A DNA stretch of 59,190 bases, the filler included, from Sluysia triapertura (taxonomy: Eukaryota): assembly GCA_046118255.1 (NCBI GenBank). It is 4 parts of 4 records of this genome, joined end to end, with 100 filler letters (N's around TTAATTAATTAA, not from the genome) between each part and the next. Parts side by side here need not be neighbours in the genome. Positions count along the whole stretch, not along the records: positions 1 to 16,402 come from JBJNIA010204595.1; 3 more parts are not named here. One strand, 5' to 3'. How positions within the stretch are numbered: position 1 is the first letter of the stretch; every line of letters begins with the position of its first letter. The position numbers were made by a program, and so were the translations under genes. Positions 1-59,190 of the stretch are shown here, piece after piece. Below the pieces are notes generated by a model. That model ran no database searches and was not told the DNA's origin. It saw only the letters and a program-made list of their open reading frames with translations.

Positions 1-269
1 AAAATCGTCTGATAAAATCGTTTGGGCCCCTACAATTATATTGGAAATAAAATAAAAATGAAATTATTATCCATTGAGAAATATAATATTGATTTTGGAT
101 TTTCAAAGCAAGAATACAAATCAGATACTTGTTATTTTATAACCGTTATTCCTTTTAAATTCAGTAATAATAAAAAAACGCTTGGTATTTCAATAGAATT
201 TGAAATTGAATCAATATATGTGAGTCAATATAAACATCATTTAAATATAAACTACTTTTAATTAAATCT

Positions 270-645
270 GAAATAATATGTTTGCAGTAGAAAACAGTAA
301 AGTGGTTTTATAAGTTAAAGATGGTCAAAATGCAATTATTGTACGTGAAAATTTATCAGAATGTTTAGGATTTAATATTAATAGATTTGATAAAGAAATA
401 CAGCAAATAACTCTCTTTTACTGAATAAAGCTGTAAATCACACATACATTTGCTTCGTTGGAAGCAAATACTAAAGAACATGAAAATCATAATACAGCTA
501 CTGCAACTATAAAAATCCGATTTATTTACCAATATCATCATCACCTATAAACAATGTAGAAGTCAATATTCGTGATGATTTCGGACAACGAATTTATTTT
601 TCGTACGGAACTAAAACAATTTGTCTATTCATTTACGAAAAATGC
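270..645 (+). pseudogene. Degenerate Maverick/Polinton (adintovirus-type) minor capsid (penton) gene, 3' part
   Basis: 514-627 reads NPIYLPISSSPINNVEVNIRDDFGQRIYFSYGTKTICL, then HLRK after a frameshift. This fits the penton C-terminal pattern P-x-Y-x-P...IEIxIxDxxGxxIxFxxG...LHFR. Upstream ENLSECLGF fits LAxxLGF. Frameshifts and stops present. Confidence 0.75.
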
Positions 646-654
646 AATTATTCA

Positions 655-880
655 TGAAATTATTGAAGCTTATAGACAACCACAAATAGGTAGTGAATTA
701 TCATATTTTATTTGGGAAATAATGGTATTAGGTGGTTAAGGACACTTGGAAGACTAGTTTTTCCTTTAATTAAGAGAGTTGGATGATTTTTAAGTACATC
801 TACAGAAGATGTATTAGTTAACGAAAGACTAGGAGTTGAATCTGGGAAAAAATATTATAAACGGAGTAAAAGAGACTAAA
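655..880 (+). pseudogene. Degenerate small Maverick/adintovirus virion protein gene between penton and major capsid
   Basis: EAYRQPQIGSELSYFI, then after a frameshift GNNGIRWLRTLGRLVFPLIKRVG*. Resembles the Q-x-G...G-x-G...LRxLxRxxxPLxK amphipathic motif of the small core proteins of these elements; position fits. Confidence 0.6.
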
Positions 881-972
881 AATTATTTACCGAAATAATT
901 AAAAATTTACTGGAAGCGGTTAACCTCCTCTAATCAACCAAAAAGGCGAAAAAGAAGTGAATAGAGAATTAT

Positions 973-1640
973 ACAAAAACTGAATTATGTATTTTTGATT
1001 GTCAACTTATACAAAATGCAGCCTTTGAACATATTTATCCTATATATACAATAAATACATAGAGATATAAAATTTAAAATACAAGCATCAGAAACTGATT
1101 ACATTATTATTCATTGAGTTGAAAGTTGCAAAGTCAGATGGTACAGGTGTTCGAGTAACTAGTTACATGTTTCATAGTGTGATTTTATCAGTTAATAATA
1201 CTCAAGCTGAAGATAGAAATTGTAGTTAAGCACATTTTAGAATATTAGAAAATATTCTAAATTATAGTCATGATACTGAAGCTATAACATTAAGTGTTGA
1301 TGGATAAGATTCGAATAAATGTGTTGTTCATTATTATTGGACTTTTTCAATCAACCAAAATATTTGATTCCCGGTATAAATGTTCACTTGAAATTGTGCA
1401 ACAATAAATCAAGTTTTGACTTGCATCTGATTCTGGCACTGGTAGTTATAATGTTGTTTTGACAGTTGCAAAAGCATGTGTAAGATCAGTTAAAGTTGAG
1501 CTGCCAGTCTCAGTCTTAGACATTAATTAGGTCTACAAAAATCAAATGCAATTTATCTGATTCATTAATGAAAAATGTATATATCAAAAAGATAACTTGG
1601 TTTTACTGATTCACGAAATTTGTTTTGGTTACTTTTCAAA
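973..1640 (+). pseudogene. Degenerate Maverick/Polinton major capsid protein (hexon/PY), N-terminal half
   Basis: Fragments in order: TKTELCIFD..IQ..FEHIYPI, IKFKIQASETDYI, LKVAKSDGT, LENILNYSHD, DFFNQPKYLIPGINVHLKLCNNKSSF, AKACVRSVKV. These match the conserved MCP blocks KSELDLF / EYxP / IEFxIxxSxxDYID / IETLLNY / DxFxQxKYLxxGVxxxIKL / VRKVK. Many frameshifts and deletions. Confidence 0.8.
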
Positions 1641-1725
1641 TTACAGATACAATTAATGGATCAAGTTTGAATATAGTTTTATTATTAGTATATTTCAGTA
1701 TATATTAGTGTTAATTTGTCGGCTA

Positions 1726-2105
1726 TTTAGTGGCCAACACTCACAACTCAAAATTTATCAAAACACCACATCCAATATTCACAAGTCAAACTTCACCAAA
1801 ATACAATTTTCAAAACAATCACACTTTTTACTATCGAACTACACCAACACAACTACCATAAACAACACTCGATATCTATAACATATCATCAACTCACACA
1901 CATCAACAATTCGACTAACACTTTTAATCATTCACAGCATAACAAACTTCGACATTTAATTCACAACATTCACTTATAAGATATTCTAACAAACAAGCCA
2001 CAATCACAGCATATCATACACAATTCATGAACATAATAACACCATTTAATAACGGTAACAAGTACCTCAGAAACATAAATCATTTACATTAAAATCCTTA
2101 ATCAA
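1726..2105 (+). repeat. Dispersed LTR-like repeat, family B
   Basis: Colinear with 58807-59190 (e.g. TTTTCAAAA(C/T)AATCACACTTTTTACTAT(C/T)GAACTACACCAAC in both). Starts TTTAGTGGCCAACAC versus TGTAGTGACCAACAC. Confidence 0.85.
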
Positions 2106-4999
2106 CTACATCAAGGTAAATCCACTTCATTTATACATATGTAGCATCAACATCTATTCTTAATAACAATATAATTACGTTAAGATTTATTTTGTAATCG
2201 TCATTCAAAACTAAATTAACTTTGACCTTTCATTAAGCATCTCAAACTATCTTATTCAAGGATCAAATCTTATTTTTAATTACAAAATCTCAATAAATTT
2301 CAATAAGCTTTTCTAACACTCTTCGTTTCAATTACTACTCAACTCATTTCCATTTCATGTAAAAATAAACAATCTAGCTTCAAAAACAATTCATTATCTT
2401 AATATGAAACAACAACGATAACCGAAACGTAACGTGCCTCGTTACCGTTGTTCTTTCACATTGTCTCAATTGTTTTCGTTTTCTTTTTACTTTCCTTCAA
2501 TTTTATTCATCTTTTCATATGTAGAAATAAAAGAAATAGGAAGACTAAGTTCGCGTATAAGTTCAAAGAAGTTTGTGTAGTTAATTTCAATTATTAATAA
2601 TAATAATGATATTCGTTTTATCTCTTAATCGAACAATTATAAAAAACTTAGAAGATTGGGTCCGCCTACGTTAAACGCTTTATCTTAACTGGAAGGACGT
2701 CTACGTAGGATTTAAGATGCTTAAAGTGAAAGTTAAGAATCAGTCTAACAAGAATGATTAACTCCTTCGATAATCTATTATTAACCTCCTTTAATATATA
2801 TTTTTTCTGTTTAATCTTTGTATTACTTTTATTATAATTATGTAATTCAATTAAATGTAATTATATGTAACTCAAAATATTAAAAAATTCCTCGAACGTA
2901 CTTCGTTAAAATTAATTTATTCAAACTATCTCTAACAAATAACTCAAAATTTAAATTCAAAGATGAAAGAATATTAAATTATTTATTACCAAAAATACTC
3001 CAAATAAAAATACAAAATATAATATAAACAATAAATAATTTATAAATAGATTTATAATTTTACGTATATATTGACCCAGAGGGTATCTTTGGGTTGTCTT
3101 AAAAATTTAATTCTGATTTTACGTGGATTTTAAGACCTCTTTTATTAGGGTCGAACAACCTACAGTAAATAAGCTTACTTAAATATTCAAAGAAAAATCG
3201 ATAATTAATTTTCCAGCAATTGAACAATCTAATTTGACTCCACGAATTCGATGATCAAATATTTTTCTCCAAAATTATTTTTCAATTTACCAATTATTCT
3301 CCGATAATTCAACTAGGTATCCGTAATTAACGCTTCTTTCAAAAATTAAATTGATTTGATTTTATTCTTCCAATTCCGCGACTACTTTCATAACATATAC
3401 TAATATTCTCCAAATTAATCTTTTCTTTTGAATCTGTCAGTTAATTTTTTGAATTCCACTAAATATTCTTGTAACGTATTTTCAATCCTGCATCTAATCT
3501 AAAAATCTTCGGCTTAATGATTTTTTACTTTTTATAGCTTACCTTTTATACTATAGCTTATTTCCTTTATTAATTTTTCAAAATAATGTAAATATTAATA
3601 AATTTTAAAGTAATATAAATAAATATTGACAAATTGTAAATAAATATTGACTTAAAATATTGGCTTCCTTTGTAAACTTCCTTGATTTAATTTCCTTTAT
3701 TTATTAATTATTATTATTAAAATAGATAATTTTAGATTTTATAGTTAAACTAAAAAAATTAACTTTTATTATTTAATATTTTTTACTTTTATTATTTACA
3801 AACTTTTTACATGAATATATTTTTAGATTTTATTATTTACAAATTTATTATTTACAAAAGATTTTATTATTTACAGAAACATATACTTTTAATTTCATTC
3901 AATTGATAATTTAATTCTGATTGAGGTTCACGAGAATTTAATGACTATAATGAAACAAAAAATACAGACCATCAAAAATGCAGCATCACAAAAAATTCTA
4001 TATAATATAATAATAATCCTATTTTGGCGAGGGCATATATCTATTTCATATATAGAAAGCTTTAAAATTTGCAAATTTTAATAAAATTATATTTTTAATT
4101 TTAGATTTCGAAACAATGAAATGAACAAGTGTTAAAAACTTTAGGTATAATGTCTTTTAAAATATTTCAAAACTTTAAAACAAACAAATGATACAGATAA
4201 TTTACGAAACTTTTATTCAAAAAACGCGAAAACTGTATAAAATATAAATATTACGTGTAAAAATTTTGCAATTGGACTCAAATTGTCGTTTTCAGAGTTT
4301 GTTGTATTACTTCTACCATACCGAAGTCTCACTTTAAACTATTTTTCAACAAAATAAGTATTATTTCTGAATAAATATTTCAAATATGGCACATAAAAAC
4401 AGATCATCATTTTTATGGTATACCAATATTCCAATTAAAACCGAAATAGCAAGGAAAGTTGTAGCATTAATTATCGTTGTAAAATCAAGTTTCATTTTAT
4501 AGCAAATAATTTTATTAATTTTTGTGGTCTCCATATACATATTAATTTATTATTATTTTATTATATATATTTTATAATTTCAGTTGGATAACAGTCTAGC
4601 GTATTCAATTGTAAGACTTGAAATTTCACATAGAAATCGAAAAATTAGCAGTTGCTCGATGATTTTTCCTTTTACTTTTTTCTTTAATGTATTTAAGGAA
4701 AAGTCAAACAAAAATAAAAATAACAAAAGGCATAACAAAAGGTATACAAAATATAATAGCATACAAACAAAACAAAACAAGGAAGCATATACAACTCAAA
4801 AAGCAGAACGAATAAAATAAGTAATTCTAATTATTTTATCTACTTACGTTTGTAAACAATATATTTCTTATTAAAAATTTATTTTACAATTGATGAGAAT
4901 AGATTATATCATCTATTACTAATAAAAAAACTACAAGTCTGCTGGATATTTAAACAGAAAAAATCAGAATTCAAAATTTAATTACATAATGAATTTTGA

Positions 5000-5780
5000 A
5001 TGTTAATAAATTTTTATGATCATTTTTCAGTAACTGGATTGATTGAAGTAATTTTTGACAAAGAGGTTCATCTTGAATACCAGTTTTAAGTATCTTCACA
5101 TGTGGCTGTAAAAAGGGTGTCTGTGTTACTACAATGCGGAACGAATTGGCTTTTGAAAAACATTTCTTATATCTTGTTTGTCTAACACTTCCTCAGTTTC
5201 TCGTTCTTACTTTCTACTTTCATTGATGTACATAGCTTCACAGATCTCTCTGTAAACATTTTTTGTTCTTGCTCTTCATGATGCTTCTTTTGGTCGTGCA
5301 TTTCTTGGACATAATTTCCTCCAACAATTATACTGTTTGACTGGGATGGCTATGAAGTACATTGTGTAGCACCACTTAAAACTGAATCGATTGGTAGAAA
5401 ATATTCTTGATGTGCACCTCATTGGTTGAATTAGAAGTAACAATAGTATCTTGATTATAAGGGAACCTCAGATTCATCATGATTAAGGGCAAAACTTGCT
5501 AATGAAAAGGATGCAGAAGAATGTATTTGGGTCAGATGTTCCTGGGAGATATTTTGATCCTCTTCTTTTTCGTGATGGTATTTAGTATGTGAAACTCTCA
5601 TTGGATACAAAACTTTTCAAATTGTTTGCATCTGTTAACGTTGAAGAATCATCAATTGGTAATCGGCGAAACATCCATTCCATATCGTGTGGAATTTTGA
5701 CTGATGCTATGATCTAAACATTGTGTGATTAAAAGGTAATAAAACATATTGGAAGCACTTGATCAAGCACTTTATCGACT
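5000..5780 (-). pseudogene. Degenerate coding-like sequence of unknown family, downstream of a family A repeat
   Basis: Locally GC-richer. The minus strand gives broken runs such as IIASVKIPHDMEWMFRRLPIDDSSTL and HQEYFLPIDSVLSGATQC*PSQSNSIIVGGNYVQE. No family recognised. Confidence 0.3.
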
Positions 5781-5879
5781 GTGTAGATTGATTACGATTT
5801 TGTGATTTTTTAGCTTTTAGAAGATTCAATTAAAGCATTTATCGAATTTTTTACATAAATAGTAATAAATACATTGTAA

Positions 5880-6300
5880 TAAAACATAATAATAGTGATA
5901 AAATCTAGAAGGAAAAGTGAATAAGAATAAACATACATACAAATGTACATACATATATACCTATACATGTGCATAAAAACGAGAGAGTGAAAAGGTAAAG
6001 TAATTTTGAAAATAAAAAAATTATAATGGTAACAATTATGAGATTAAAATTATAAAATTATTATACAGTTTAATGTGATAATGTTAATAGAATTAAAATA
6101 ATATAAAATTATTATGAGAATTATTATCGTGATAGTAATTATGATAACAATAAACATAACAAATGATAATTATACACAATGACTACGTTTATGTTTTGAA
6201 TGAATCGAGTAATTTATTTAACATTATGTTTATGTAAGAAATGTTCATTTGTGATGAAATGTGTTTGTGATTTTGATGTGAAAATGTGGAGTTCACTACA
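5880..6300 (-). repeat. Dispersed LTR-like repeat, family A
   Basis: Minus strand starts TGTAGTGAACTCCACATTTTCACATCAAAATCACAAACAC. Homologous to 41820-41935 (same orientation) and ~43650-43980 (inverted). Confidence 0.8.
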
Positions 6301-6679
6301 CCTGTAATAATAATCCTAACGTAATATAATTTTATTTTGCATATGTTTTATAGATTTCATCAGAGAAAACACTCGCAATATACTAAGGTTGTAATACATT
6401 ATCTTTACACGACCATTACTCGAATTTTTAGTTGGACTAGGTTATGTAGTATTAAATTTAAATGAAAACAATTTGGTACGATTATGTTTTGAAACATTAA
6501 TTTTAAATAAAAACAATTTAGTAATGTTATGGATCTTTTACTTTTGAAATCAAAATTGATATAATTTATATAATTAAACCTAAGTTCGTTGCGAAAATTA
6601 TGTTTTAAAATTTTATTTAGGTTTATTATGAACAAATTAAGGAAATCAATTAAGAAGGCATTAACACCTATAATCATTT

Positions 6680-8000
6680 TTATATTTTTATTATAATACA
6701 AAGTTTAAATTTCGTTGTTATATCCTTACGAATGTCATTCGACTTCGCCCAATGTTCCTCATCTGAAATAAAATGAAGGTATAAATTATAGATAAAGTGA
6801 ATGAAAGAAATAATTACGTTATTAGGATACTGCAACACTTGTAAATTAAACGCCATTATATTTTGATCTTTAAACCATGAATAGTCTGTGCAATTAAATT
6901 TATTAAAATTTACTTTGATATTATTTTGGGATGAATAAATTTCTAGTAGAGAAAAAACATCTACTGTAATACGCTTGGGTAATTTTCGCGTAAGTTCTGT
7001 ACAAATATTATACAATTCATGAGTTGTGATATCATCTTCGCCTCTACTAATACTCTACGAATACTCATGCAAATGTTTGTATAATCATCACTAATAACAT
7101 CACTATAATCCACAATTTTATTCAATTTATCTTTTTTGACATTTTATTTATTTGTTTATTTTATAATTTAAAACATTTGGCAAATCTAATTACCCGAGAA
7201 CATCTCTAAAAATTCGATCATTTAATGTAAATATAAAATTAAAAATCCTGTTATCATTGATAAAATGGATGAGATAACTCATCACATGATGAACAGAGTC
7301 ACTACGAACATTTATTTCTTTTTTCGTATTTAACACAAAATAAGGTAAGTGATCACAAAACGTTATTGTCGGTTCATTATGAAAAGACGTAAAATAACTG
7401 AATGAAAATGTAACATGTAGTAGAACATTATCTTGTGATACAAATGTTAAATTATCTTTAATATGAACAGTCATCAAAATGTTAAATGAAATGACGATAT
7501 TCTCTTTATTACAACTGTAGTGCTTCAGAAAATCAATTGAGATAATCATAAATTTATCAACATTATTCGTTTGACTTAATGTAGTATTACTCTTTTTCTC
7601 TTTAAACATATTCTCTATAAGTAATTGAGAATCGAAAAATATAAGATATTTCATTAAAACGCTCACTATTAGCGACTGAACTAGTTCTTTAAAAAATAAT
7701 AAACGCTTACTATATGTATACATTGGATCCAATGATTGAAAACTATTAATTTGTAACAAACTTTTCATCCATTCTAAAACTGGAACTATTCGTCCTGAAA
7801 TGCGTAAAAGGATTGAATAACATCGGTCTTCAGACTCAAAATTGACACATGTGAATTTTGCATATGAATTACTAATTACTAAAATAATTTACCACTATTC
7901 TCAGTTGATACTAAAGATGACTTTATTACGATATCAGATATTTGATAAATAGAATCATGTGTTCCATACAACTTTTTAATTTCATTTACTAGTTGACGAA
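6680..8000 (-). CDS. Orphan gene or pseudogene (192-aa and 111-aa ORFs, possibly spliced)
   Basis: The 7190-7768 frame stays open upstream to ~7885 and ends at a donor-like CTCGG|GTAATT. A phase-compatible TAG acceptor near 7050 joins it to the 6680-7015 frame. No recognisable domain. Confidence 0.35.
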
Positions 8001-10522: not shown

Positions 10523-11719
10523 TCAATATGGTGGATTACGCTTAGAGGGCGTATAATTGGAAAGTTTGATCAAGTTGACGTTACGCATGATTTTATATGA
10601 CTCTGAGATTTGACTTATTATATCATAACTTGTTTCTATCTTAAATTTATTATATTTACTTATACCTAGTATTATATTATATCTCACCAAATTTTCTTTA
10701 TACATCCTACATCTTTCGTTTATCAATTTAGTCAATTTTAGTTTCTTGTCTATGTTAACTTTTCGTTTCATCTTTCCAGTAAGTGAAATACTTACTGTCC
10801 TATTATTTAAAAAATACAATGGTGATTTAAAAAGACAAGGATGAAACTGTATTACATAAAAAAAATTTAAAATTCTACGATTTGAAATAATAAAGATAAA
10901 ATTGTTAGTTTTAAATTTTATTTTTAGATATTTGGACTTTCTCCTCCACCAAAATTCTTGTACTTCTCGATTCCAGTTAGAATAATTGGAAACTAAATAA
11001 CAAATTAAATTATACGTAAAACTTGTACTTACAACATCAAAATTTAACTCGAGCTGCGATCGTTCCGTCTGTAATGGATGTGAAGCATGTCTTAAACGTA
11101 CATCATTGTTTCCACGATTTGTTGCCATTGATCTATCAACTAATCTTTCACTAAAAGGATTTATCATTTCTTCTTGATGGATGTATTGCGAAGGACAACT
11201 GATGGATGAATTGCACTTAATTCTAAATTTTATAATCGGATTCATCGAAATAATATTAATGAATTCACAATCTCTCGAGTAAATTACATAGGAAAGGTGA
11301 CTTTTTATATTACGACATAAATCGTATTTTGATTGTTTAATAATCTTTAATGTACTGTAGAAGTCGATCTGGTAATCATCTTCATGGTATTCTTTAGATT
11401 TAGCATACGCATCCTTATCAGTTTTATGAGAATAATGGACATCATCGTTGCATTTTTGATTATATTCTATTATGACAACAACTGAAGGATAATCGAGGTT
11501 AATATTCCTTAGATCCGGTAAGGTACTAAACTCATTGCTTGAAATTACGTTTAATTGCTTTGTAATGGAAGGATTGGTGACGATAATTTGATAATGATTT
11601 CTAGAACACAGCGATACGTAATTCAAATTAGATCTAATTGCTGAATTAGTAGTAATAACAGCTCCAAAAATAAATCTGAAAATTTGTATCAAAGCTTGAC
11701 AAACATAACTCGTAATCAA
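10523..11719 (-). CDS. 398-aa orphan ORF, probably the remnant of a longer gene
   Basis: 1.2 kb stop-free frame in very AT-rich DNA, with a TTG start only. Broken coding-like sequence continues upstream to ~12690. The stop codon falls in a family C repeat motif. Confidence 0.45.
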   Translation of the reverse strand: MITSYVCQALIQIFRFIFGAVITTNSAIRSNLNYVSLCSRNHYQIIVTNPSITKQLNVISSNEFSTLPDLRNINLDYPSVVVIIEYNQKCNDDVHYSHKTDKDAYAKSKEYHEDDYQIDFYSTLKIIKQSKYDLCRNIKSHLSYVIYSRDCEFINIISMNPIIKFRIKCNSSISCPSQYIHQEEMINPFSERLVDRSMATNRGNNDVRLRHASHPLQTERSQLELNFDVVSTSFTYNLICYLVSNYSNWNREVQEFWWRRKSKYLKIKFKTNNFIFIISNRRILNFFYVIQFHPCLFKSPLYFLNNRTVSISLTGKMKRKVNIDKKLKLTKLINERCRMYKENLVRYNIILGISKYNKFKIETSYDIISQISESYKIMRNVNLIKLSNYTPSKRNPPY

Positions 11720-14639
11720 CTTGGGATGCTTTTCGTATTTTACTTTAATGCGTGAACAATAGGAATATGATAAGACTGTGATTGTTTGGCCATGGTTTAG
11801 TGATCTTAAATTCTAAATATTTATAATATTTATCTTCGGAAAGATTTTTGAAAAGATCGATAGTATAGATACTCATAGAGAATTTAGAAATTAAATAAAA
11901 TGAATTATTGGTAGTATCATTTAGTCCGTAAATTCAATGACTGCCTTTTTATAGTTTGTAATGTGAAATATTGTCATTACATTTAAAAACATTTCTTCTG
12001 TAATTTACATAACGTTCAACTGATACCTCCAAAATTTTGTTCATAACTGTTAAATATACTTTTGTAACTCGTTTAATTTACAATATTCATCATTACTGTA
12101 GAGAGAAAAATTTAACGAGTTGTTTACGTAAACACTATATTTAGTATTTTATGGTCTTAGGTAAACATAAAATATAAAGGATTGTTTGTAAAACGACTCT
12201 AACAAATTTGTGCTATTCTACAACTGAAATGATAACTAATAATTTTATACTGGGTATCATAGCAATTAATATTTATTTTTTTGATAAATTTTTCCGGATA
12301 TAATGAAAATATTGGTAAAATAGTCTGAATATAATTTGAAATTTTCTTATTTTATAGACTTTTGTCATACTCTACGAAGTTTAATATAGATTGGTAAGGA
12401 TAATAATGTGTTAAGGAATTACGCATATCTGAATTAACACCATTTTGAAGTTGTTTTTCGAAGAGTATGGAAATAATTTTTTTTATATTTTTTATTGCAA
12501 ACAATTTCTTTTAAATTTGATGTTGCATAAATTCTGAATTCTGTCGAAATACTTTTTAAAATGCTATTAATTTTTGTAATATTTTTATTTGTTAATACAA
12601 GATGACGTTACTTTTGATGTACTCTGTAGTTGCGATGAGTTTATAAGTTGCTTTGTCAAATTAGTTCTGCATGTCATTTAAAAAGTATTGATCTTTCATT
12701 TTAAAATATAGTTTAACCAAAATATATTTTATTATTTTCATAGAACTGTATGTGGTAATAATATGTTAATATAAATTGTATTGAAATTTAACTTGAAATT
12801 GTTACATTTAGACATATTTATTAATAGAATTAATTTATTTAAGTTTGATAACATTAGGAAATTTTGCATTACAAAAAATAACCATATTTAATTATATCAA
12901 TCTTAACTTTATGATTTTACCAAACAAATACAAAAATAAACACTTAATTGATTTATTTTACAAAAATTTTTGATAGCTATATTTAAATTTTTCTGTGGCC
13001 TAATTTTCTGAGCATGCCTCATATATCGAAAATTGAGGTTCTAAAAGAAAATAAATAATATAAACATATAATTCGATTTATATAAGAGTTGGTTAAGCTA
13101 AAATCTAATATTACTTTAAAGTTCTGTTGGTTCCTCCAGTCTAATGGTGAGATGTCGCACTTAATAATAAGGTACTGAACCTACGATAATGATCATTGAG
13201 ATGCGATCTTAAACTAAAAAGATCCCTAATTTCAAAGCTTCGTGACCATAGATACAGTTTCTGCCATATCGGGAACGCTCACCATTTTGCATTCTTCCAC
13301 ACAAGCATACACCATATTTGTAATTTTTGTATTGATGGGCATCAGGTTGTGAATTTTTACTCAAAGATATGTTGTTACTATAGTAACGTTTTAATGGTCG
13401 GTCTTTGTTTTTACTTTTGCCATATTTTTTACTAATATAATTTTATTTGTGATCAGTTACGAGTCGACATCATAGGGACATGTATACTTTTATCTATTTT
13501 CATCACGATATACATTGAAGTATTAGGATGGTGTGGTAAATTTATTTTAACACTGACTAGTTATAGTATGATGATTGGTCGTGATTGGATAGATAGTGAG
13601 GTAATCATTATAGAAGGTAATTTTCATTCGCACACTATGCTGTAAAAATAAATAATGAAAAATAAGACTGTCGATGATTGGGCGTCCGATTAGAGACAAC
13701 ATAAAACATGTGGAAAAATATTTAAAGTAAAGTGATAGAGTAAAGAGATAATTTTAACGTGAGTGCATCAACGTTGGATTTGTGAATCAAAGGATTCTAA
13801 AGTAAGACTAAAAGAAATGCTAAAAGAACTTTGCTAGTGATTCTAATTTATATCTTTAAATAACGAATTAAAAAATATCTGGAGGTAAGTTTTGATATTA
13901 AGAAATTTTGTGAGACTTTAAGATAATGTTATTTGGGTTATTCCTTGAAATGGAATCTTAAAAAGATTTTACGTAATCGGATTTAAATTCCAATTGTTGA
14001 AAACAATTTCTTCTACTGATTTTATAATTACAACTATATAAATTGAACACTAAAACTCGATTTTCATAATTTATTGCGAAACAATTATGAAGCAATAATA
14101 AATCGTATATTACAATGATATTAATTTACGTATTTTAACTCAATAAGAGTTAAAAACTATAAAATCAATTAAGTTCTTAAATGATTTTTCGTGAGATCTA
14201 GTATAAGATCCAAATATTTAATAAAAGATTTTAAGTGTGATTTTGCGTTGATATTATTATTAATATCGTAACTTATAATAAGTAAACTAACGTAACGTGA
14301 AAAAAGGATTTATTTAGAATTCAACAGTAAAATGGTTCCAAAACCGTAGATCATGAATAACAAAATTATGTTAAAGTATTGAGTTATTTTACAAAATTAA
14401 AGTCTATTTATAATTGTTTTAATCTGAAGGTCAGATTAAAACAAAACATTAAAATTTAATTTATTAAAACAAAATATTAAAATTTATTTACTACATTAGT
14501 TTAATTTTTTAATTAACAATTAATATAAAATATAATTTCTTACTTTAGTTCAAATATTCTAAAAATAAATCACAAAAATTCGAATTAAGTTATTAAAAAT
14601 TAAAATTTAATCAAAATTACAAAGTTCATTTTAACAAAC

Positions 14640-16402: not shown

Positions 16403-16502
16403 NNNNNNNNNNNNNNNNNNNNNNNNNNNNNNNNNNNNNNNNNNNNTTAATTAATTAANNNNNNNNNNNNNNNNNNNNNNNNNNNNNNNNNNNNNNNNNN
16501 NN
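16403..16502. other. Artificial contig join (44 N + TTAATTAATTAA + 44 N)
   Basis: Six-frame-stop linker inside N runs; the identical structure occurs three times. Confidence 0.95.
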
Positions 16503-17487: not shown

Positions 17488-19269
17488 GTTAGATTTTAAA
17501 ATATTTATTGTTTTTACTTATTATTAAACTAATAATAATAATTATTATTATTATCATTATTATTTATTACCATTTTGAAAAAAATATATTTCTCTAAATT
17601 TACAATTACCTTTACATTTATGTTTTTATATGCTGTTCGAAATCTGAAATTGTAACTATAAATAGAAATTATTTTGATTTGATCTTGCTGGAATCTTAAA
17701 TAAAGTAAAACAATAAATAATAATAACCGTTATTTTTCTACCCAAGGTTTATGTAATGTAGTATAAAATGTAGTATAAAAATTAACGATATGCATTAATA
17801 CTATTACTAGGTTTTTTCTTAACTTAGTCTTATGAATAAAAGAATGTTTAAAGTGAGTCCACCAACGTACTAGGCTTACCATTTAGGGCTCGCCGTTGGA
17901 TTTAAATTATGATCTGATCACTATATTTTGACAACACGATTTAATTTATTTTGTTATAAGAATCGGTAAAGATAAACTTTCTTAAATTATTTATTAAACA
18001 ATAAATGTTATCTATGAATTTAAGATAAATCCTATTAAAAAGGATTATCACATTAATTATAATGTGAACTTACAAATCCGAGTAAATTTCGGAGAAATTG
18101 TATACACAAACGTATTTTAGGATTTTAAAACTATTTAATTTGCACTTGATTCGATTAAATGAATCTATTATAAACTTAATTCAAAAACAAATATTAAATT
18201 CAAAAAGAATAATTTACAAAATTAATGGCAATGTTCAATAATAATATAATAACACAAAGTAATAATATGCTACAATATTAATTTGACTAAAGTTAATAGA
18301 AAACAATAAATGATTTTAAAATAGGATTTTACACAAGAACCGTGAAATGATTCCGAAAATTTACAAATAATAATTTTCCTACATTTTACAAAAATACGTC
18401 TAAAACTACTGTAAACTTATTAAAAATAAACTAACGAAAAACAGTAAAGTAAGATTTGCCCCAATCCATTTTATCGTCCAAAATTGTGCTTTGTAAATTG
18501 TGACTCCAATATTGATATTCAAAAATTGTGTTTTGTAAAAACCATAATTAGAAAGTTAATACTTAAAAAATTGTGTAACCTTGTCTAATTGAGATTAATT
18601 TATAATAATTTTAATTGTCCTTGAACAATTTTGGACAAACAAAACTTATTTTACTAAAATTAATTTTTTAATTTTTTACTTTAAAATTTACAATATTTTA
18701 TTTAAATATTTAATTTTTAAGGTTTTTACTAAAAATACTTACATTAAATAAATCCAGATAATAATAACAATTAAATCTAGACAATCGATAATAATAACAA
18801 TGTTAAAGATCAAAAATTAACTGTTTATTAATTGTTTAAATAATTTATGTTGTATATTTTATGTATCACTAATCAACATATACAAAATAACACAACATTA
18901 TTATTTTATTATTATTATAATTACAATTATTATGATAAAACATGCTCTAAGTATTTAGTCAAATAATTCATACCATTTTTGTTATTGATATCGATATCAT
19001 AATTTAAAATCTAAAAACAAACTTTTCATTTTCGTCTTGTATAAGTTCTAAAATATAATTATTATGATTTATTACAATTTATTAATTAAATAATTTTGTC
19101 TCAAATTTAAAAACATTAAATAATTATAATAATTATTTAACCTAACTTCTTAAAATTTTATTACAGCATTTTTTCATATTAACATTAAATTACTAAACTC
19201 TGAATTTTATCTAAAACAATAATTAGTAATATTTTGTAATTATTATTTATTACAAATTTTGAATTTTAG

Positions 19270-19590
19270 AATTAAATAAATTTACTGAACGAGGTAATGA
19301 ATATGTCGAATTTGTGATGGGGAATGTAGCACAAATAGTATGCAAACCACCAGATTCAGATCCTAGTCCACCATACATTAGTTTCTTATTTAATGGGAAT
19401 GTTATCGATACAAATTCAAGCAGAACCACCAGATATCGGGTTGTTCATTTTCCACCACATTTCGATAAAGTTGCTTTACTCATACTTAGTGTTACTAAAG
19501 AAGATGTTGGTGAGTACAAGTGCAAAGCAAGTATACTAGGTACAAATTTGGCTTATGAATCTTCAAAAAAAACTTCACTTAGAGTTCAAG
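19270..19590 (+). CDS. Ig-superfamily receptor, exon B (complete Ig domain, iHog/CDON/BOC Ig2-like)
   Basis: TTTTAG acceptor and G|GTAAG donor. GNVAQIVCKPPDSDPSP...LLILSVTKEDVGEYKCKA...LRVQ has both Ig cysteines and the DxGxYxC motif. Confidence 0.9.
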
Positions 19591-19630
19591 GTAAGAAAAA
19601 TATTAAATGTGTTACAATACGGTTTACTTA

Positions 19631-19691: not shown

Positions 19692-22600
19692 ATTCTTAGC
19701 ATATTTCCGTTGTAAACTTTCATCATATAACAGAAAACACATTAACTTTATATATGAAAATAAAGTTAAAAAAATTTTTAAATTGTTTTCTAAGAATTTC
19801 TTTTTTGTATTTTTTACAAACTTTATTGATTTTGTTTTGAAACATTAAAATCGATATTCGTTTTATAATTAAAACGAAATATAACAAAAAAAAGTTACAG
19901 CAAACTTTAAACATTTAAATTAAAGAAATATTGCTTTTTTAAAAATCATATATTAAACCATGTACATTATGATTAGTTTAATCAATTTGCTGTTATTGTA
20001 AATTAAATTGCTTCTGCTAAAAACTAGTGAAACTTCTTTTATTAACGATTAAATCTGTAACATTCACCTGTTATGGTTTTTACCTCTTTGATTACTTTGC
20101 TAAACTTACGTAGCGGATTTCTTAAACTCTTTTTAATATGACTCTTAGTTTCTGGTAACGATTTAAATTTCTTTACTTATATAAATTCTTAATAATAATA
20201 ACTTGACTTTCTTAATAATATTCCAATCTTATGATACTACTTAGATATAATTGAAGGTATAAGCATTTATTAACATAAACTCTTTTTATTGCCTTATTCT
20301 ACAAGTGGTATTTGTACTTTATATTAGATTCACCTTATCTAGAATTGTGAATTCATATATTCGTTGTGGTGGTCTGAAATGGAAATGCTTAATAGGATCT
20401 TTATAATTTAGTTATTTTAACTCCCACTACAATTATAGAGTACTAAATTTATTTAGTTACGTTACACAAACTTTAGTCGATATTAATCCTAAACTTTGAT
20501 CAAATTTTATTCGTAATTATTCAATCTAAAATTTAGCTGTTTTCGACCTTTATTTAGTACGCAAATAACAACAAGCAAAAAAAATAAGAAGAAGAAATTA
20601 TTCCTTTATTACAAAATCTCTCTTATTTTAATTATAATTTATAAATAAAATTTTAATATCGATTTTATCATCTTTTTCGACTAGTGATAATTCTTGTTTT
20701 TGAGCCTTCTTGTCTTCAGATTGATCAATCATTAAAATATTTACGAAAGAATAGTAACTCGATTTGTAGTTTAGCGATTTTCTCGATATTTTTGTGTTTC
20801 TTTTCATACTACTTTTCCATGTAATCGAATTATATCATTTACAAAACTTATAATACTTTTCAATTATAATAGTTCAGACAAATTGAAATTGAAATGATTT
20901 AATTACATACAAATAAAATAATACAGAAACTTTGAAGGTTTAATTATACAGAAAATTATAAATAATTAATTTTATGATATTTCTAAATAATTTTCAAGTT
21001 ATCCAATACAGAGAATTATAATAGTTCAGAAAAATTAATTAAGAATTATTTCTAGTCGAAAATAATGTTATTGATTTTTAATTACATGCTGTTTCTATTT
21101 AATTTCAATTCAATATGATTTTATTCTATTAAAATGCTTTTAAATTTATATTGCATATGATTCGTCTTATATATTCTAAATCATATTTTAAAGATAATTT
21201 TGATCGGATTTTATGTTCTTAAAATTGATTTCATACTACTGTTCTTGATTCTTAATTTAAGATGATCTATTGATTACAATAACAAGGTTTGATGTTTATA
21301 TATTTTAATTTCATATTATCTTTATATAATCTCACTTTAAATTGATTATTTCTACATTTTCACTTGAAATTTAATTATTATTTGTTATTACATTTTGAAT
21401 TTATATTAACAATAAGCAATCCCATTTTAAAATGATACTAAAACATTATAATCTTAATAATCTTTTAACCATTATTTTATTAAAATGAATATGTCTAAAT
21501 ATTATATTTTAACAATTATTTTATTAAAAATGAATTTATTTTATTAAAGTGAAAAATTAGCATTGCCTAAATATTTATTTTACATTAGGACATTATAAGG
21601 ATAAATGCTAATGAAGTTATTATTATGTATTAATCGATGTTACCATAGAAATGACTTAATTAATTTTGATTGGATTTTTGTGAATAGTTACGAATATTTG
21701 TAATGATTGTTGTGATTTGAAATTGTTTAATTTAGATAATAATTTTGGGTTACATAAAATGATGTTTTATAACACTTTTTTATTTTAGATTTCAAAACTT
21801 CTATTCTTAGGTTAATATTCATCGAACCTAGGAAGAAGACTAAATTTAAAAGTTTATAATTAGAAAACGAAAATTCGTAAATACCACAATTTTTATTGAA
21901 CACAAAATTTAAAATTTTTATTGTTTAACAAGTTCATTGTACATATGATACTCTCGATTAGCTACGTTTCGCTATCTAAAAATAAAATAGAAATTAAATT
22001 GTTTTTGGTGTGACAATAAAAAGAGATTACTTTATCATAACCAGTTGTTATATGTTTCCGAAGTTGGTATTCCAATGCATTTGAGTAATTTCGTAAGTCT
22101 GAACAGGTGAATATGTAAGATATATATTCGGTTTTATGATTCATTACTTGATTAACTGCATGTACATACAAACAATTATTTCCGAATTTTGTGCATCTAC
22201 TATTTAGGTCACTACTATATGGGTAAAGTGCTGTTCTAATACATTGATTTGAATATGATAAATTATTGAAATAGTTGAAATTGGATTGACAGTAACTGAT
22301 GGAAAGTACATTAAATTCTTGAACGTATAGCTAAAATGATGACATTTATAAGGATCAGTGTAACGATATAGAGAACGTATTTTCAAATCTTTTTTACATT
22401 TATCTTTGTACTCGATACTTAACTGTGATGCATATATTCGTAGAACTTAAATTAAGTCTGGACTTGTATTCATTGTTGTTATCGTAAAAGGTTTGATAAT
22501 ATTCATGTTTAATACATTATTTTTCTTAATTCGAATATCGATCATAAGCATTCTTTTACATGTAACAGAGTAATTATAAACCTTACCAGTAACTACTAAT

Positions 22601-29794: not shown

Positions 29795-29894
29795 NNNNNN
29801 NNNNNNNNNNNNNNNNNNNNNNNNNNNNNNNNNNNNNNTTAATTAATTAANNNNNNNNNNNNNNNNNNNNNNNNNNNNNNNNNNNNNNNNNNNN
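29795..29894. other. Artificial contig join
   Basis: 44 N + TTAATTAATTAA + 44 N. Confidence 0.95.
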
Positions 29895-40992: not shown

Positions 40993-41092
40993 NNNNNNNN
41001 NNNNNNNNNNNNNNNNNNNNNNNNNNNNNNNNNNNNTTAATTAATTAANNNNNNNNNNNNNNNNNNNNNNNNNNNNNNNNNNNNNNNNNNNN
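40993..41092. other. Artificial contig join
   Basis: 44 N + TTAATTAATTAA + 44 N. Confidence 0.95.
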
Positions 41093-47280: not shown

Positions 47281-47805
47281 TTCTTCATTGTATATGACAT
47301 GCAGTTATGTAAATAGAATTAAAATGTTCAACTTCCAAATAAACAAGAAAATAAAATATAATGAATCCAAGTTTAGAGATTTGGTATACCTAAGTTTTAA
47401 AATGTTAATTGATGATACAAGAAGTAATAGTTCCAAACATAATATGCCTTATGGATCGTGTATAGCATTTAAGAATGTTCATTTCCTTAAATGATAAAGA
47501 TGACAAATTCTTCATCAAATTTATATCTGAACAAAACTTATATCTATCAATTAAATTTAATGTCTAGGCTGAAAAGCTCTTATATAATGAAACATAGATT
47601 GATAAAGATATATGACAATATCTGGAGATTAGATAAAACTATTGTGAACCAATTTATGTTTATGCCTATCAATCTATTAGTAGATGTTGATTTATTTGTC
47701 ATAACAAATAAACTGTGCCCACCACAATAGAAAACTTCAAACATCAATTCTGAAATTATTCGTCTCAATTCAGTATATTCTGGTAACAAATTACAAAGCA
47801 CAAAG

Positions 47806-48054
47806 ATGTCAACTCTAGCAGATTTCAACAAATATTATAAGACGGCCCTATGTCCGTACATAACAACACTAATCGGAGAATGCTCAAGATATGCCACAAG
47901 ATGCAAATATTACCATACAGCTAATGAACTTCAAAAGTTTGGAAATAATTCAACAGATGCTATCCTACATCTCAACAGAATATACAAGCTGTTATCAATT
48001 TTAAGTACTTCTCTAGCACAATATACTTATGTTAGACTTCGTAAAATGGACTGA
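47806..48054 (+). CDS. Small ORF or exon with a single CCCH zinc finger (TTP/Roquin-type lead-in)
   Basis: YKTALCPYITTLIGECSRYATRCKYYHTANELQKF = YKTxL-C-x9-C-x6-C-x3-H-xxxEL. Frame is open from 47731. Confidence 0.65.
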   Translation: MSTLADFNKYYKTALCPYITTLIGECSRYATRCKYYHTANELQKFGNNSTDAILHLNRIYKLLSILSTSLAQYTYVRLRKMD

Positions 48055-48118
48055 CCGGGGATCGAACCCGGGACCTTCTCTGCGCAGTTCGAATGCTCTA
48101 CCACTGAACTATCAGCCC
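48047..48118 (-). tRNA. tRNA-Ala(TGC)-like gene with disrupted anticodon arm (possible pseudo-tRNA)
   Basis: GGGCTGA TA GTTC AGTGGTA GAGC A TTCGA ACTGCGC AGAGA AGGTC CCGGG TTCGATC CCCGG TCAGTCC A, then TTTT. 72 nt, A and B boxes, G3:U70, A73. The anticodon stem pairs at only 2 of 5 positions. Confidence 0.8.
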
Positions 48119-49282: not shown

Positions 49283-49410
49283 NNNNNNNNNNNNNNNNNN
49301 NNNNNNNNNNNNNNNNNNNNNNNNNNNNNNNNNNNNNNNNNNNNNNNNNNNNNNNNNNNNNNNNNNNNNNNNNNNNNNNNNNNNNNNNNNNNNNNNNNNN
49401 NNNNNNNNNN
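49283..49410. other. Assembly gap (128 N, no linker)
   Basis: Plain N run. Confidence 0.95.
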
Positions 49411-50790
49411 AGTATTATTATTATCCTTATTATTATTTACGATGTTAGTTTCATTAAGATTCATTGTAGATTTCAGCATGACAAAAGCAGGCGACTTCAG
49501 CGAGTTAGTCGTAAATTTTTATAGAAACAAAACAGAGATCACCTTTGGTTTAACGTTTATTATTTAATCATTAAAATACCTCTCATTTTTGTTCATTATT
49601 TTATCTTTCATTTTAGGTTATAGAAGATTATTCATTTATTGTTTGCCAAATGAATTGGATATTGTAAAGTGTGTTCTAAATATTATATGAAATATGCTTA
49701 AGTCTGCAGATGATTTGTGGAGTGAACTTGTCTAAAACACTGTGATTGTTGAGTGATATAAATTAAGATGTTTTATTGAATAGTACTGTGGATTTCTTGA
49801 TTGTAATAGTTGTGAGATGTGGAATGAATGAAATGTTATGAAATAATTAAGGCGCAGGCTGTTTAAGTTGGGAATTTTGTTAATAATGTTATTCGTTTAA
49901 AATTTATTATGTGCTGATTTGTAATAAAATCAGATGTAATGAGTTCATTAATTTCATTGCTATTCCTATTTTTTAAATATTATTTGCATTATTAAATTTC
50001 TACTCAACAAATTCGTCGCTACTTTTTTACTTTTACAGTATTAAAAGGTTTTTAAATTTAAACAAATAAAGTACTTGTTTGATTTCGTCTATTTTATGAC
50101 TGATGGCAGATATGATATAACCTAATACACAGACTATAATATAATATATTTATAATATATTATTTTAATATTATAAAATTTGAAATTACTTTACATAGAT
50201 ATAATAATTTTTGAATAATAATTTCAGATTTAAAAGATTAAATTTTAGTTTATTATAATTTGGACACAAGTACTTAGTAAAACAAACTGCGAAAATAAGT
50301 GAAATGCATATCAGATTAATATGAATTAATTTTAATTAAAAATCTCTTATTACAAAATAAGATTAAATATAAATTTAACATGTCTACCTATAACGTGTAA
50401 GAATCAAAATGTTAAAACATATCATTATAAATAAAAGCATTATTTTATCTATTTCAAAACTTAGATAATTAAAAATTAAGTAAAACATATTTTGTTATTT
50501 GGTTATACCATGATGAAAAAATTAAAATTTGACCTACAGATTTAAATGACTATATAGATTATTTAAATAATATTGTTGATACCATGAAATTTGCATGTAT
50601 GAAATTAATTATTTCAGGAAAGTATTTCATACATATTATATTATTCTAATGTTGAGTAATATTAAAGTTTAGTTATGTTTCATTTTTCGTGTCATTTTAG
50701 ATTAATGTACATTTGTAACCAATCATATTAAATGCAATAATTTAATTATGGTATAAAATCATACATAAGTAAATTTAATTAATACTTATA

Positions 50791-51157
50791 ATGACTAAAA
50801 TAGGTAAAGTTCGGAAAAATACAGACATGAATTGTGAACCAATACTTAAGGAAAAGTGTATATTTAACTTGCAATATTTTAAATTGTGTATCGTATGTCT
50901 ATTTTGTGGTGTTTTTTATTATTTGCATATTGATTTTATGCAAGAATCTCATGTAATGTTTTCTCATTTATCAACTTTGGAGCGTGAAATGTATTTTAGA
51001 ACAGAAAATGGATTTTATTATTCGTTTTACAAGCAATTAATAAATTCACCAAATTTACATACATCCTTTAATATATTAATGAATGATAACATAACTGAGT
51101 ACCCAAGTAAAATAAGTGCTTTGCAACGTTTTAATTTGTATCCTGAAATCTTTCTAG
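50791..51157 (+). CDS. dpy-19: DPY-19-family C-mannosyltransferase, exon 1
   Basis: FSHLSTLEREMYFRTENGFYYSFYK..DNITEYP..LQRFNLYPE are DPY19 signatures; donor G|GTAAGT at 51158. Confidence 0.95.
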
Positions 51158-51192
51158 GTAAGTTTTAATTAGTATCAACTGGACCTATTTAG

Positions 51193-51569
51193 CTTACATT
51201 TACCGAATTTTCAAATTAGTATTCGAAGATTTGTTTAAAATGACAACTCAAACTTGTTACAGTATTGAAAGAGGAAGTTTATCATCTGTCGTTAGTTGCG
51301 TTGGATTAGGTGATCCACTTGTATTTTATGTAACTATGGTTTTGGTTTTACATGGAATAATGATGATGTTTTTGGTCATTTTTGGATATCGTTTGGCAGG
51401 TAAACACTTTAGTGGTGCAATAGGGGTTTTTCTATTATTTCTATACAATCATCGAGAATGTACTCGTGTTCAGTGGAGTACTCCATTAAGAGAAAACTTT
51501 TCATTTCCATTTTTGTTATTGCAACAGTTATTATTAATATGCATGCTCAGGAAAAAAGATACCAAAAGT
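51193..51569 (+). CDS. dpy-19: DPY-19-family C-mannosyltransferase, exon 2
   Basis: In frame after a 35-nt intron; SCVGLGDPLVFY..NHRECTRVQWSTPLRENFSFPF; donor GTTAGT at 51570 (phase 0). Confidence 0.95.
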
Positions 51570-52359
51570 GTTAGTTTCTAAATCTTTAAGGAAAGATTGA
51601 TATTAAATATTGTTAATTTTTAATCCAATATTTTATTGAATATTTAGTGTAAGGAAATATCACAAAAAATTAATTGTATGAATAATTCGTTGTAACAATG
51701 TATCAAAACTAAAATTATTTAGTTTACTAAATTCACTTTAAATGTTTTCTATTGTGCAGAATAATTTGAATAATTTTTTTATTTTATTTTTAGTTTGTTA
51801 AAATTTTTACCTGAAATATTCACTTCTTATGTTGCTATGTGCCTTTATATATTTTGAGAAAAATGGTAATGATAGGTTGTTTTTAATTAAAATGCTATAT
51901 TTTCGAAATTCTAATTTCACTAGACAAAACTAGGTACTTCTGATTCCAAATCCCAAAGGTGCTAGTTGATTATAAATGTACATAAATTCATAGTAAACAG
52001 CAGTTAAGGCAAAATAACTGTTTATATTAAAAATTGTAAAAAAAATAAAATTGTTTATATTCATGTGTTAATCGAAATTTTCGGTAGTTAAAAGAATATT
52101 GCTAGTTAAAATAATATAATGGTTTCTAATGTGCATAAGTTTTTTGATCAGAGTTCAAATGGTCGAAATTTGATTCTTGAAGCCGCAGTGAAAGAGAAAA
52201 GGTAAGAAATGTAGATATATTTCTCTACTAAGCTTGAACTATCATCATTTGATTATACCAATAACAATGATTACACTGTCAGGAAACTATAAAGACCTTT
52301 TTTAAATAGTACTTAAAATAGTTTCCTTATAACTAATAAAATGATTAACATAAATTTGA

Positions 52360-52392
<33 letters not shown>

Positions 52393-52396
52393 TCAG

Positions 52397-52721
52397 ATTA
52401 GTTGTACTTTGCGTTGGAGTTTTATTTTGTCTACACTTGGTGCTTTATTGTCATGGCAATTTGCTCAGTTTTGTCTCATTACTCAATCTGTAGCAGTATA
52501 TATCAGTTACCTTATCATATCTAACTTAAAGTTTCACAACACTTCATCACTTGATCCATTGAAATCTGTAATAACTACGGTTTATCGTTCGCTTTTGATT
52601 GCTGACATATTAAATGTATTTCTACAATTAGGCAATTCCTTATTAATTATTGGACCTTTTCGACCATGTTACCTGATTTGTTGGTTACTAGTTGTTTGGG
52701 AGCCAAATGGATTCATTAAAT
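52397..52721 (+). CDS. dpy-19: DPY-19-family C-mannosyltransferase, exon 3
   Basis: TTTCAG acceptor, phase 0; WQFAQFCLITQ and LQLGNSLL motifs; donor GTTAGT at 52722. Later exons were not found in the window. Confidence 0.9.
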
Positions 52722-52879
52722 GTTAGTATTATGTATTGTCACAATAAATTTTTTGCTAGTAAATACATTTTATTTCATAGAACTATTTTTAGTAAAATAT
52801 TTATTGTTATATTCTATTATATTTTTAATGGAAAGGTGAAAAAAAATTTATGATTTCTAATAGGTAGATAAAGCAGAAT

Positions 52880-58806: not shown

Positions 58807-59190
58807 TGTAGTGACCAACACTCATAACTTAAAATTAATCAAAATCCCTTGTTCAATATTCACAAATTAAATTTCACTAAAATTCAATTTTCAAAATAAT
58901 CACACTTTTACTATTGAACTACACCAACGCAAACATAAAATAACATTCGATAATCACAACACCTCATCAACTCACATATATCAATAATTCAACGAACATT
59001 CCAACCCTCCATAGCATAACAAACTCCGACATTTAATCTCGAATAATTCACAACATTCATTCACAAGATATTTCAACAAACAAACCACAATCACAAAATA
59101 AAGTATACAAACTATAAACATAATAGCATTATTCAACAACGCTAACAAATACCTCAGAAACATAGATCATTTACATCAAAACCTTCAATC
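58807..59190 (+). repeat. Family B repeat (runs off the window)
   Basis: Colinear direct repeat of 1726-2105. Confidence 0.85.

Follow-up and report, generated by a model that had tools for sequence, protein, structure and literature searches.

Mavericks, Polintons and adintoviruses have been treated as one group, in which group 1 is uniform in gene content (bioRxiv 10.64898/2026.06.19.733378). According to passages of PMC8097293, the core of vertebrate Mavericks comprises eight genes, among them both capsids and the small genes pz and pw, and most of their copies have been degraded by stops, frameshifts and insertions. Degraded adintovirus copies have also been described in animal germ lines, down to a human relic, and the Beta-class adintoviruses are reported with the accessory genes GasderminX, with a pX-like end, and Cupiennin-like (PMC8502044). 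In the usual Polinton layout the penton lies 'one gene away' from the capsid (PMC4028283), and endonuclease inserts are known in polinton polymerases (PMC11071308). Such elements are already known from flatworms, with which our comparison is by published descriptions: Polintons have been annotated in Schmidtea, in which they are silenced by SMEDWI-2 and piRNAs (PMC8532177), they have expanded in Dugesia (bioRxiv 10.64898/2025.12.11.693146), and Orthopolintovirales insertions have been reported in Rhabditophora (bioRxiv 10.1101/2025.04.19.649669).

We have analysed a window, i.e., the whole stretch of 59,190 nucleotides, which is AT-rich eukaryotic DNA throughout. Near its left end, at 505-1663 on the plus strand, we have found the remains of three genes in succession, namely a penton gene (its end), a small core-protein gene, and a major capsid gene (its first two thirds). 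All are disrupted by stops, frame changes and deletions. We regard this module, with high confidence, as a fragment of a dead Maverick/Polinton virion gene block, likely from a germ-line-integrated element that multiplied and then decayed. The features are the following:

55-504, plus strand: probable middle part of the penton (weak, collinear match; profile columns ~104-297 with cheap gaps)
505-647, plus strand: C-terminus of the penton (single jelly-roll minor capsid), a pseudogene (profile and tblastn)
653-972, plus strand: small gene, broken (profile columns 3-69 of 115 at 653-852; tblastn matches reach 978-999)
973-1663, plus strand: N-terminal two thirds of the major capsid protein (double jelly-roll), a pseudogene (profile columns 4-278 of 407)
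1728-2500 (right end approximate), no strand assigned: G-poor high-copy host repeat, outside the module (second copy, depth jump)

The initial annotation had placed three consecutive broken reading frames on the plus strand at 270-1640 and called them invisible to the ORF track. Each of the three scores above its null maximum in the frameshift-aware profile analysis, where the null was taken from 14 stretches per gene from the rest of the window: 60.4 bits against 17.0 for the penton, 58.3 against 14.5 for the small gene, and 138.0 against 16.6 for the major capsid (151 bits for its path over columns 4-278). The motifs that it quoted are all in place (NPIYLPI at 514-534 and IRDDFG at 568-585 in frame +1, DFFNQPKYLIPGINVHLKL at 1340-1396 in frame +2), and no ORF of at least 100 aa lies inside the module. 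The extent is to be adjusted: a module does lie there, but the match to the capsid continues as far as 1663, and that to the penton is firm only from ~505 onwards. As for decay, the capsid path shows eight frame changes, stops at 1227 and 1524, and 51 of 275 columns missing, while the small gene has one frame change and one stop. No capsid protein is made by the window copy.

To the left of the firm penton match, the cheap-gap penton path reaches position 55, so the gene probably continues past the left edge of the window. When 290-450 is compared alone with the penton profile, the score is 16-16.6 bits, a level that 12 of 200 null stretches reach in one comparison and 4 of 200 in another. The TBP profile gives 18.5 bits on 278-415, i.e., the null level. 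In run X1, 55-504 is multi-copy.

For the search of relatives, frame +2 of 800-1699 was used as the query, with stops read as X. The first search retrieved 10 proteins from 185 candidates, with a best E of 3.7e-12; they form a single family with a capsid fold, and nine have a length of 402-429 aa. Tblastn places these relatives collinearly on 976-1663, from residue 5 to ~276, in several frames. A profile of nine capsids gives 258 matches; among the best 120 of these, none is named beyond 'hypothetical protein', and cluster look-ups for the capsid relatives return MGnify accessions only. Scanning IMG/VR with the capsid alignment gave 61 pattern matches, none of which was confirmed, and scanning metagenomes with the capsid gave 55 loci. 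The penton alignment contains no stretch of sufficient conservation for such a pattern scan. The 353 ORFs of these loci match the window in three blocks, 493-651, 650-999 and 976-1702, with one stray weak match elsewhere; 29 penton-family ORFs match 493-651 by tblastn. Since the loci were fetched for the capsid alone, the neighbouring penton and small gene serve as an independent test. The order of penton, small gene and capsid is kept in 28 of the 29 loci that hold all three families.

We have also considered whether the motifs match merely by chance, the DNA being AT-rich, or whether they remain from a cellular gene. Pfam finds no family in the six frames of 1-1742, which would agree with such an origin, though it equally misses the capsids of intact relatives and a fish Maverick capsid. 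Against this, the three profile scores, obtained separately, exceed their null maxima 3.5- to 8-fold, the order of the genes is conserved, and all 10 matches of the first search belong to the one family with a capsid fold. The matches of the relatives' neighbour ORFs and the null-tested profile scores refute this origin, and its probability is practically negligible. The check that the initial annotation had proposed, in which a missing jelly-roll capsid match or a better cellular match would count against it, was run with frameshift-aware profiles and with models of relatives, and neither outcome appeared.

The structural comparison was made with intact relatives. The capsid of the window is 55% identical to the intact protein P0003, whose predicted model (pLDDT 68, moderate) matches the major capsids of PBCV-1, EhV-201, faustovirus, Sputnik and mavirus at E ~1e-12 to 1e-11. 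Its best match in the viral library is a Cotesia bracovirus protein with 24% identity; we presume that this bracovirus carries a captured Maverick. A sequence search of the PDB with P0003 gave no match. For another clade member (P0146), the look-alikes in the Atlas are PF21738 DJR-like and F54H12.2-like clusters, the latter being the name borne by fish Maverick-type capsids; the commonest taxon of these clusters is Arthropoda, on few records (1-7 per cluster in a second look-up). In addition, the clade profile finds the fish-type capsid P0318 at E 5e-70. By its sequence and by the fold of its intact relative, the window gene derives from a double jelly-roll major capsid of the Maverick family.

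Likewise, the penton model of relative L014 (pLDDT 83) aligns with the mavirus penton at Z 13.2 (rmsd 7.3, 238 residues aligned) and with that of Sputnik at Z 12.9, and Foldseek relates it to the mavirus, Sputnik and adenovirus pentons at E 2e-7. With the fold taken from this intact relative, the module has a single jelly-roll penton one gene upstream of the major capsid. The small gene in between, whose product is ~100-135 aa in relatives, is likely to encode a virion core or accessory protein; it belongs to no Pfam family in the three relatives examined. A second conserved small gene of the relatives, upstream of the integrase, is also without a Pfam match.

The longest relatives carry an A32 ATPase, an rve-chromodomain integrase, the penton, the small gene, the capsid and an adenovirus-type protease, with a B polymerase on the opposite strand that contains an endonuclease VII insert; the gene-family profiles for these genes were built from the same loci. 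In two of them, L004 and L014, a single contig holds the B-polymerase motifs along with the ATPase, the rve-chromo integrase, the penton, the capsid and the protease. The polymerase motifs are found in L004, L007 and L014, and we take them to be those of family B. The L004 integrase matches rve at E 1.3e-12 in addition to a chromodomain. In the relatives the integrase stands directly upstream of the penton, and the equivalent position is beyond the left edge of the window. Pox_A32 is matched at E 4.8e-6 and Peptidase_C5 at E 1e-7. In 16 of the 17 loci checked, the capsid is followed by a positive score of the protease profile, and the remaining locus ends 41 bases past the capsid. Pfam gives no OTU domain in the polymerases of three relatives, and six contigs of relatives, likely to be incomplete, show no convincing terminal inverted repeat.

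Several further genes occur in these loci. A TBP-like gene is present in four of the 10 long loci (L001, L004 at 2420-2866 with Pfam TBP E 5e-18, L014 and L024). The relatives also carry a gene without a Pfam match, which we take to be exonuclease-like. Some intact relatives have two diverged penton genes in tandem (L004 at 5616-7684, L005, and L011 at 1432-3475). A ubiquitin-conjugating enzyme is seen in L004, a RING finger in L001, and a dual-specificity phosphatase in L008. At its start (2-511), contig L008 holds a frame of glycosyl transferase family 4, presumably MraY-like, which may reflect a chimeric join.

In the window itself, polymerase, integrase, ATPase, protease, TBP-like and exonuclease-like genes score at the null level. 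The B polymerase profile reaches at best 22.9 bits over 34 tiles, and no element terminus was found; the window holds a fragment of an element. Weak scores of protease and exonuclease at 1721-1949 were rejected, as they lie inside the repeat. Since the window is without polymerase, integrase, ATPase, protease and terminus, the gene set of the parent is inferred from the relatives, whose capsids are 35-48% identical. This set equals the Maverick core set as described in PMC8097293. Overall, the three homologies, their order and the folds of the relatives, together with the full Maverick gene set that these relatives carry, indicate a fossil Maverick/Polinton virion module, and in this respect the identification of a decayed penton, small gene and double jelly-roll major capsid of Maverick/Polinton (adintovirus) type in the initial annotation is borne out by profiles, order and folds alike.

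For its placement, we have built a FastTree phylogeny of 265 capsids: 120 of 121 near matches and 115 of 146 representatives (both kept by a length of 380-460 aa), 11 locus proteins, 18 hand-picked fish-search matches out of 120, and the window, read with X at its breaks. The window falls inside a clade of 75 tips with support 1.0, which includes eight loci and no fish sequence. Its sister is P0003 (support 0.84), and its tip branch is long, at 0.78 against a median of 0.32. At the level of the capsid, the nearest protein is 55% identical to the window, whereas the loci reach 35-48% and the 18 fish-type capsids 22-28%; the seven nearest capsid proteins come without genomic loci.

Among the known systems, group 1 Maverick-Polintons, or the Beta (Terrapene)-class adintoviruses (Polintoviricetes), are close to the module, with the same F54H12.2-like double jelly-roll capsid and the penton one gene upstream, and the module's relatives carry their pPolB, rve integrase, A32 ATPase and adenovirus-type protease. 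The differences are that the capsid is ~405 aa here and ~435 aa in fish, and that the relatives add the TBP-like and exonuclease-like genes. The assignment to group 1/Beta over group 2 is suggested by sequence comparison with fish anchors only. Compared with the vertebrate Mavericks, the module belongs to another host group and to a separate, well-supported capsid clade, and shows neither ends nor a target duplication. Virophages (mavirus, Sputnik) and Polinton-like viruses have the same capsid and penton folds, but for virophages the likeness is one of fold, at 9-13% identity, whereas Maverick capsids match the module by sequence profile. The module would therefore not be of the virophage or Polinton-like type, whose capsids have little or no sequence similarity to those of Mavericks.

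It had further been proposed that the element belongs to an undescribed clade. The nearest relatives are indeed unnamed, and the fish Mavericks that do have names share only 22-28% identity, but Polintons of flatworms have already been published. With named anchors from fish alone, our tree does not establish the clade as undescribed. No flatworm term occurs in the text of PMC8502044, in one of its supplements, or in the two Maverick papers searched, and a TBP-bearing Maverick clade was met only in a figure legend of PMC8502044; in both respects the clade may still be published. It is possible but doubtful that an undescribed sub-lineage of Mavericks, marked by a short capsid, a TBP-like gene and sometimes two pentons, has in this module its first host-anchored member.

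To the right, the capsid ends 65 bases before the repeat. This repeat has a G content of 2-9 per 100 bases over 1701-2400, and its second copy, at 58809-59190, is 78% identical and has no capsid beside it. At the repeat the summed depth of run X1 rises from less than 900 to 10,000-66,000, and 48 X1 contigs carry different sequence to the left of 1728. Depth falls at 2501-2600, and another short repeat of high copy number follows at 2601-2750. The truncation had been ascribed to a later insertion. The proximity of the capsid end to the repeat fits this, but the missing third is not resumed beyond it: for the last third of the capsid, the score is 12 bits over 1600-4500 and does not exceed 21 bits in any of 80 window tiles. 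As a clean insertion would leave the remainder on the far side, a deletion or rearrangement is also needed.

The module could also be a Maverick-derived fragment that was not multiplied by the Maverick's own integrase: a host element that captures genes may have carried it as cargo, or segmental duplication may have copied it. In favour of this, the adjoining repeat is G-poor, and many X1 copies skip internal parts of the module. However, most copies of the repeat are flanked on the left by other sequence (48 contigs, agreement 0.46), its second copy in the window is without an adjoining capsid, and decayed Mavericks typically show internal deletions as well, as described in PMC8097293. We consider such a passive multiplication improbable, and prefer that of an integrating Maverick.

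The stretch was found in one run only (X1, possibly the window's own source), and no RNA data set is listed with it. When aligned to 1-3000, X1 contigs are identical to the window at 87-1074 (depth 15.7) and 1340-1525 (depth 19.4). As these contigs were assembled separately, the breaks in both intervals come from the run's own sequence and were not introduced by the stitching. At the listed sites of the module, 8 to 57 X1 contigs have another letter, small indel differences exist as well, and some copies omit internal parts. At many listed sites the other depth is nearly all of one letter, which suggests private changes in the window copy. According to X1, where summed depth is not copy number, the genome likely contains tens of decayed and diverged copies of the module, with or without an intact one among them.

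The presence in one run only would also fit a contaminant or an assembly chimera. The window is joined from contigs, with N runs around a TTAATTAATTAA spacer (16403-16502, 29795-29894 and 40993-41092, and a gap at 49283-49410), so that its long-range neighbourhood is uncertain, and adintovirus contigs from contaminants have been documented (PMC8502044). The breaks could likewise be sequencing errors in an intact gene block. On the other hand, many of the breaks are spanned by contigs that were assembled separately and agree with the window letter for letter and without gaps, and multi-codon deletions and a truncation are not base-calling errors. Moreover, the first contig has four repeats in common with other parts of the window. 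Contamination, chimerism or sequencing error is accordingly very improbable as the source of this decayed module.

As to the host, an exon-split gene of the Dpy19 family lies at 50782-52726 on the plus strand (Pfam E 6e-32, 2e-29 and 6e-7), and an exon with an immunoglobulin domain at 19266-19600 on the same strand. Both show the host to be an animal. The animal host that defines adintoviruses is thereby indicated by sequence, through marker genes on other contigs of the window that are joined to the module's contig by the shared repeats. Two frames resembling CCCH zinc fingers lie at 47734-48054 (plus) and 21965-22330 (minus), one of which abuts a tRNA match at 48047-48118 (minus), the sole Rfam match in the window. 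On the first contig, stop-free frames at 10526-11812, 7193-7888 and 6683-7054, all minus, span 429, 232 and 124 aa without a Pfam match.

Based on the relatives and the papers on the family, the parent element would have integrated into the germ line of an ancestor, multiplied and decayed. It may have been copied by a protein-primed B polymerase and inserted by a retroviral-type integrase, and it probably encoded an icosahedral particle with capsid trimers, penton vertices, an A32 packaging ATPase and an adenovirus-type protease. That the element was 'virion-forming', as had been stated, goes too far, since Maverick virions have not been observed according to bioRxiv 10.64898/2026.06.19.733378. 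To judge from X1, the window copy would later have acquired its own substitutions, indels and deletions, and its right end was lost beside the host repeat, either through an insertion accompanied by a deletion or through a rearrangement.

Capsid genes of Mavericks are commonly found in a decayed state in animal genomes and have been published as such, so the fossil itself is ordinary. The value of the module is that of a host anchor for relatives that Pfam misses entirely. If the host is a planarian, it would be a tractable animal in which piRNAs silence Polintons (PMC8532177), and if the clade is in addition uncatalogued, the module would give a host range to many orphan sequences. Should the doubtful proposal of an undescribed sub-lineage be true, a lineage known from unnamed metagenome and run assemblies would be tied to flatworms by a multi-copy germ-line invasion, and these animals would offer an experimental host group for seeking the still unseen Maverick virions.
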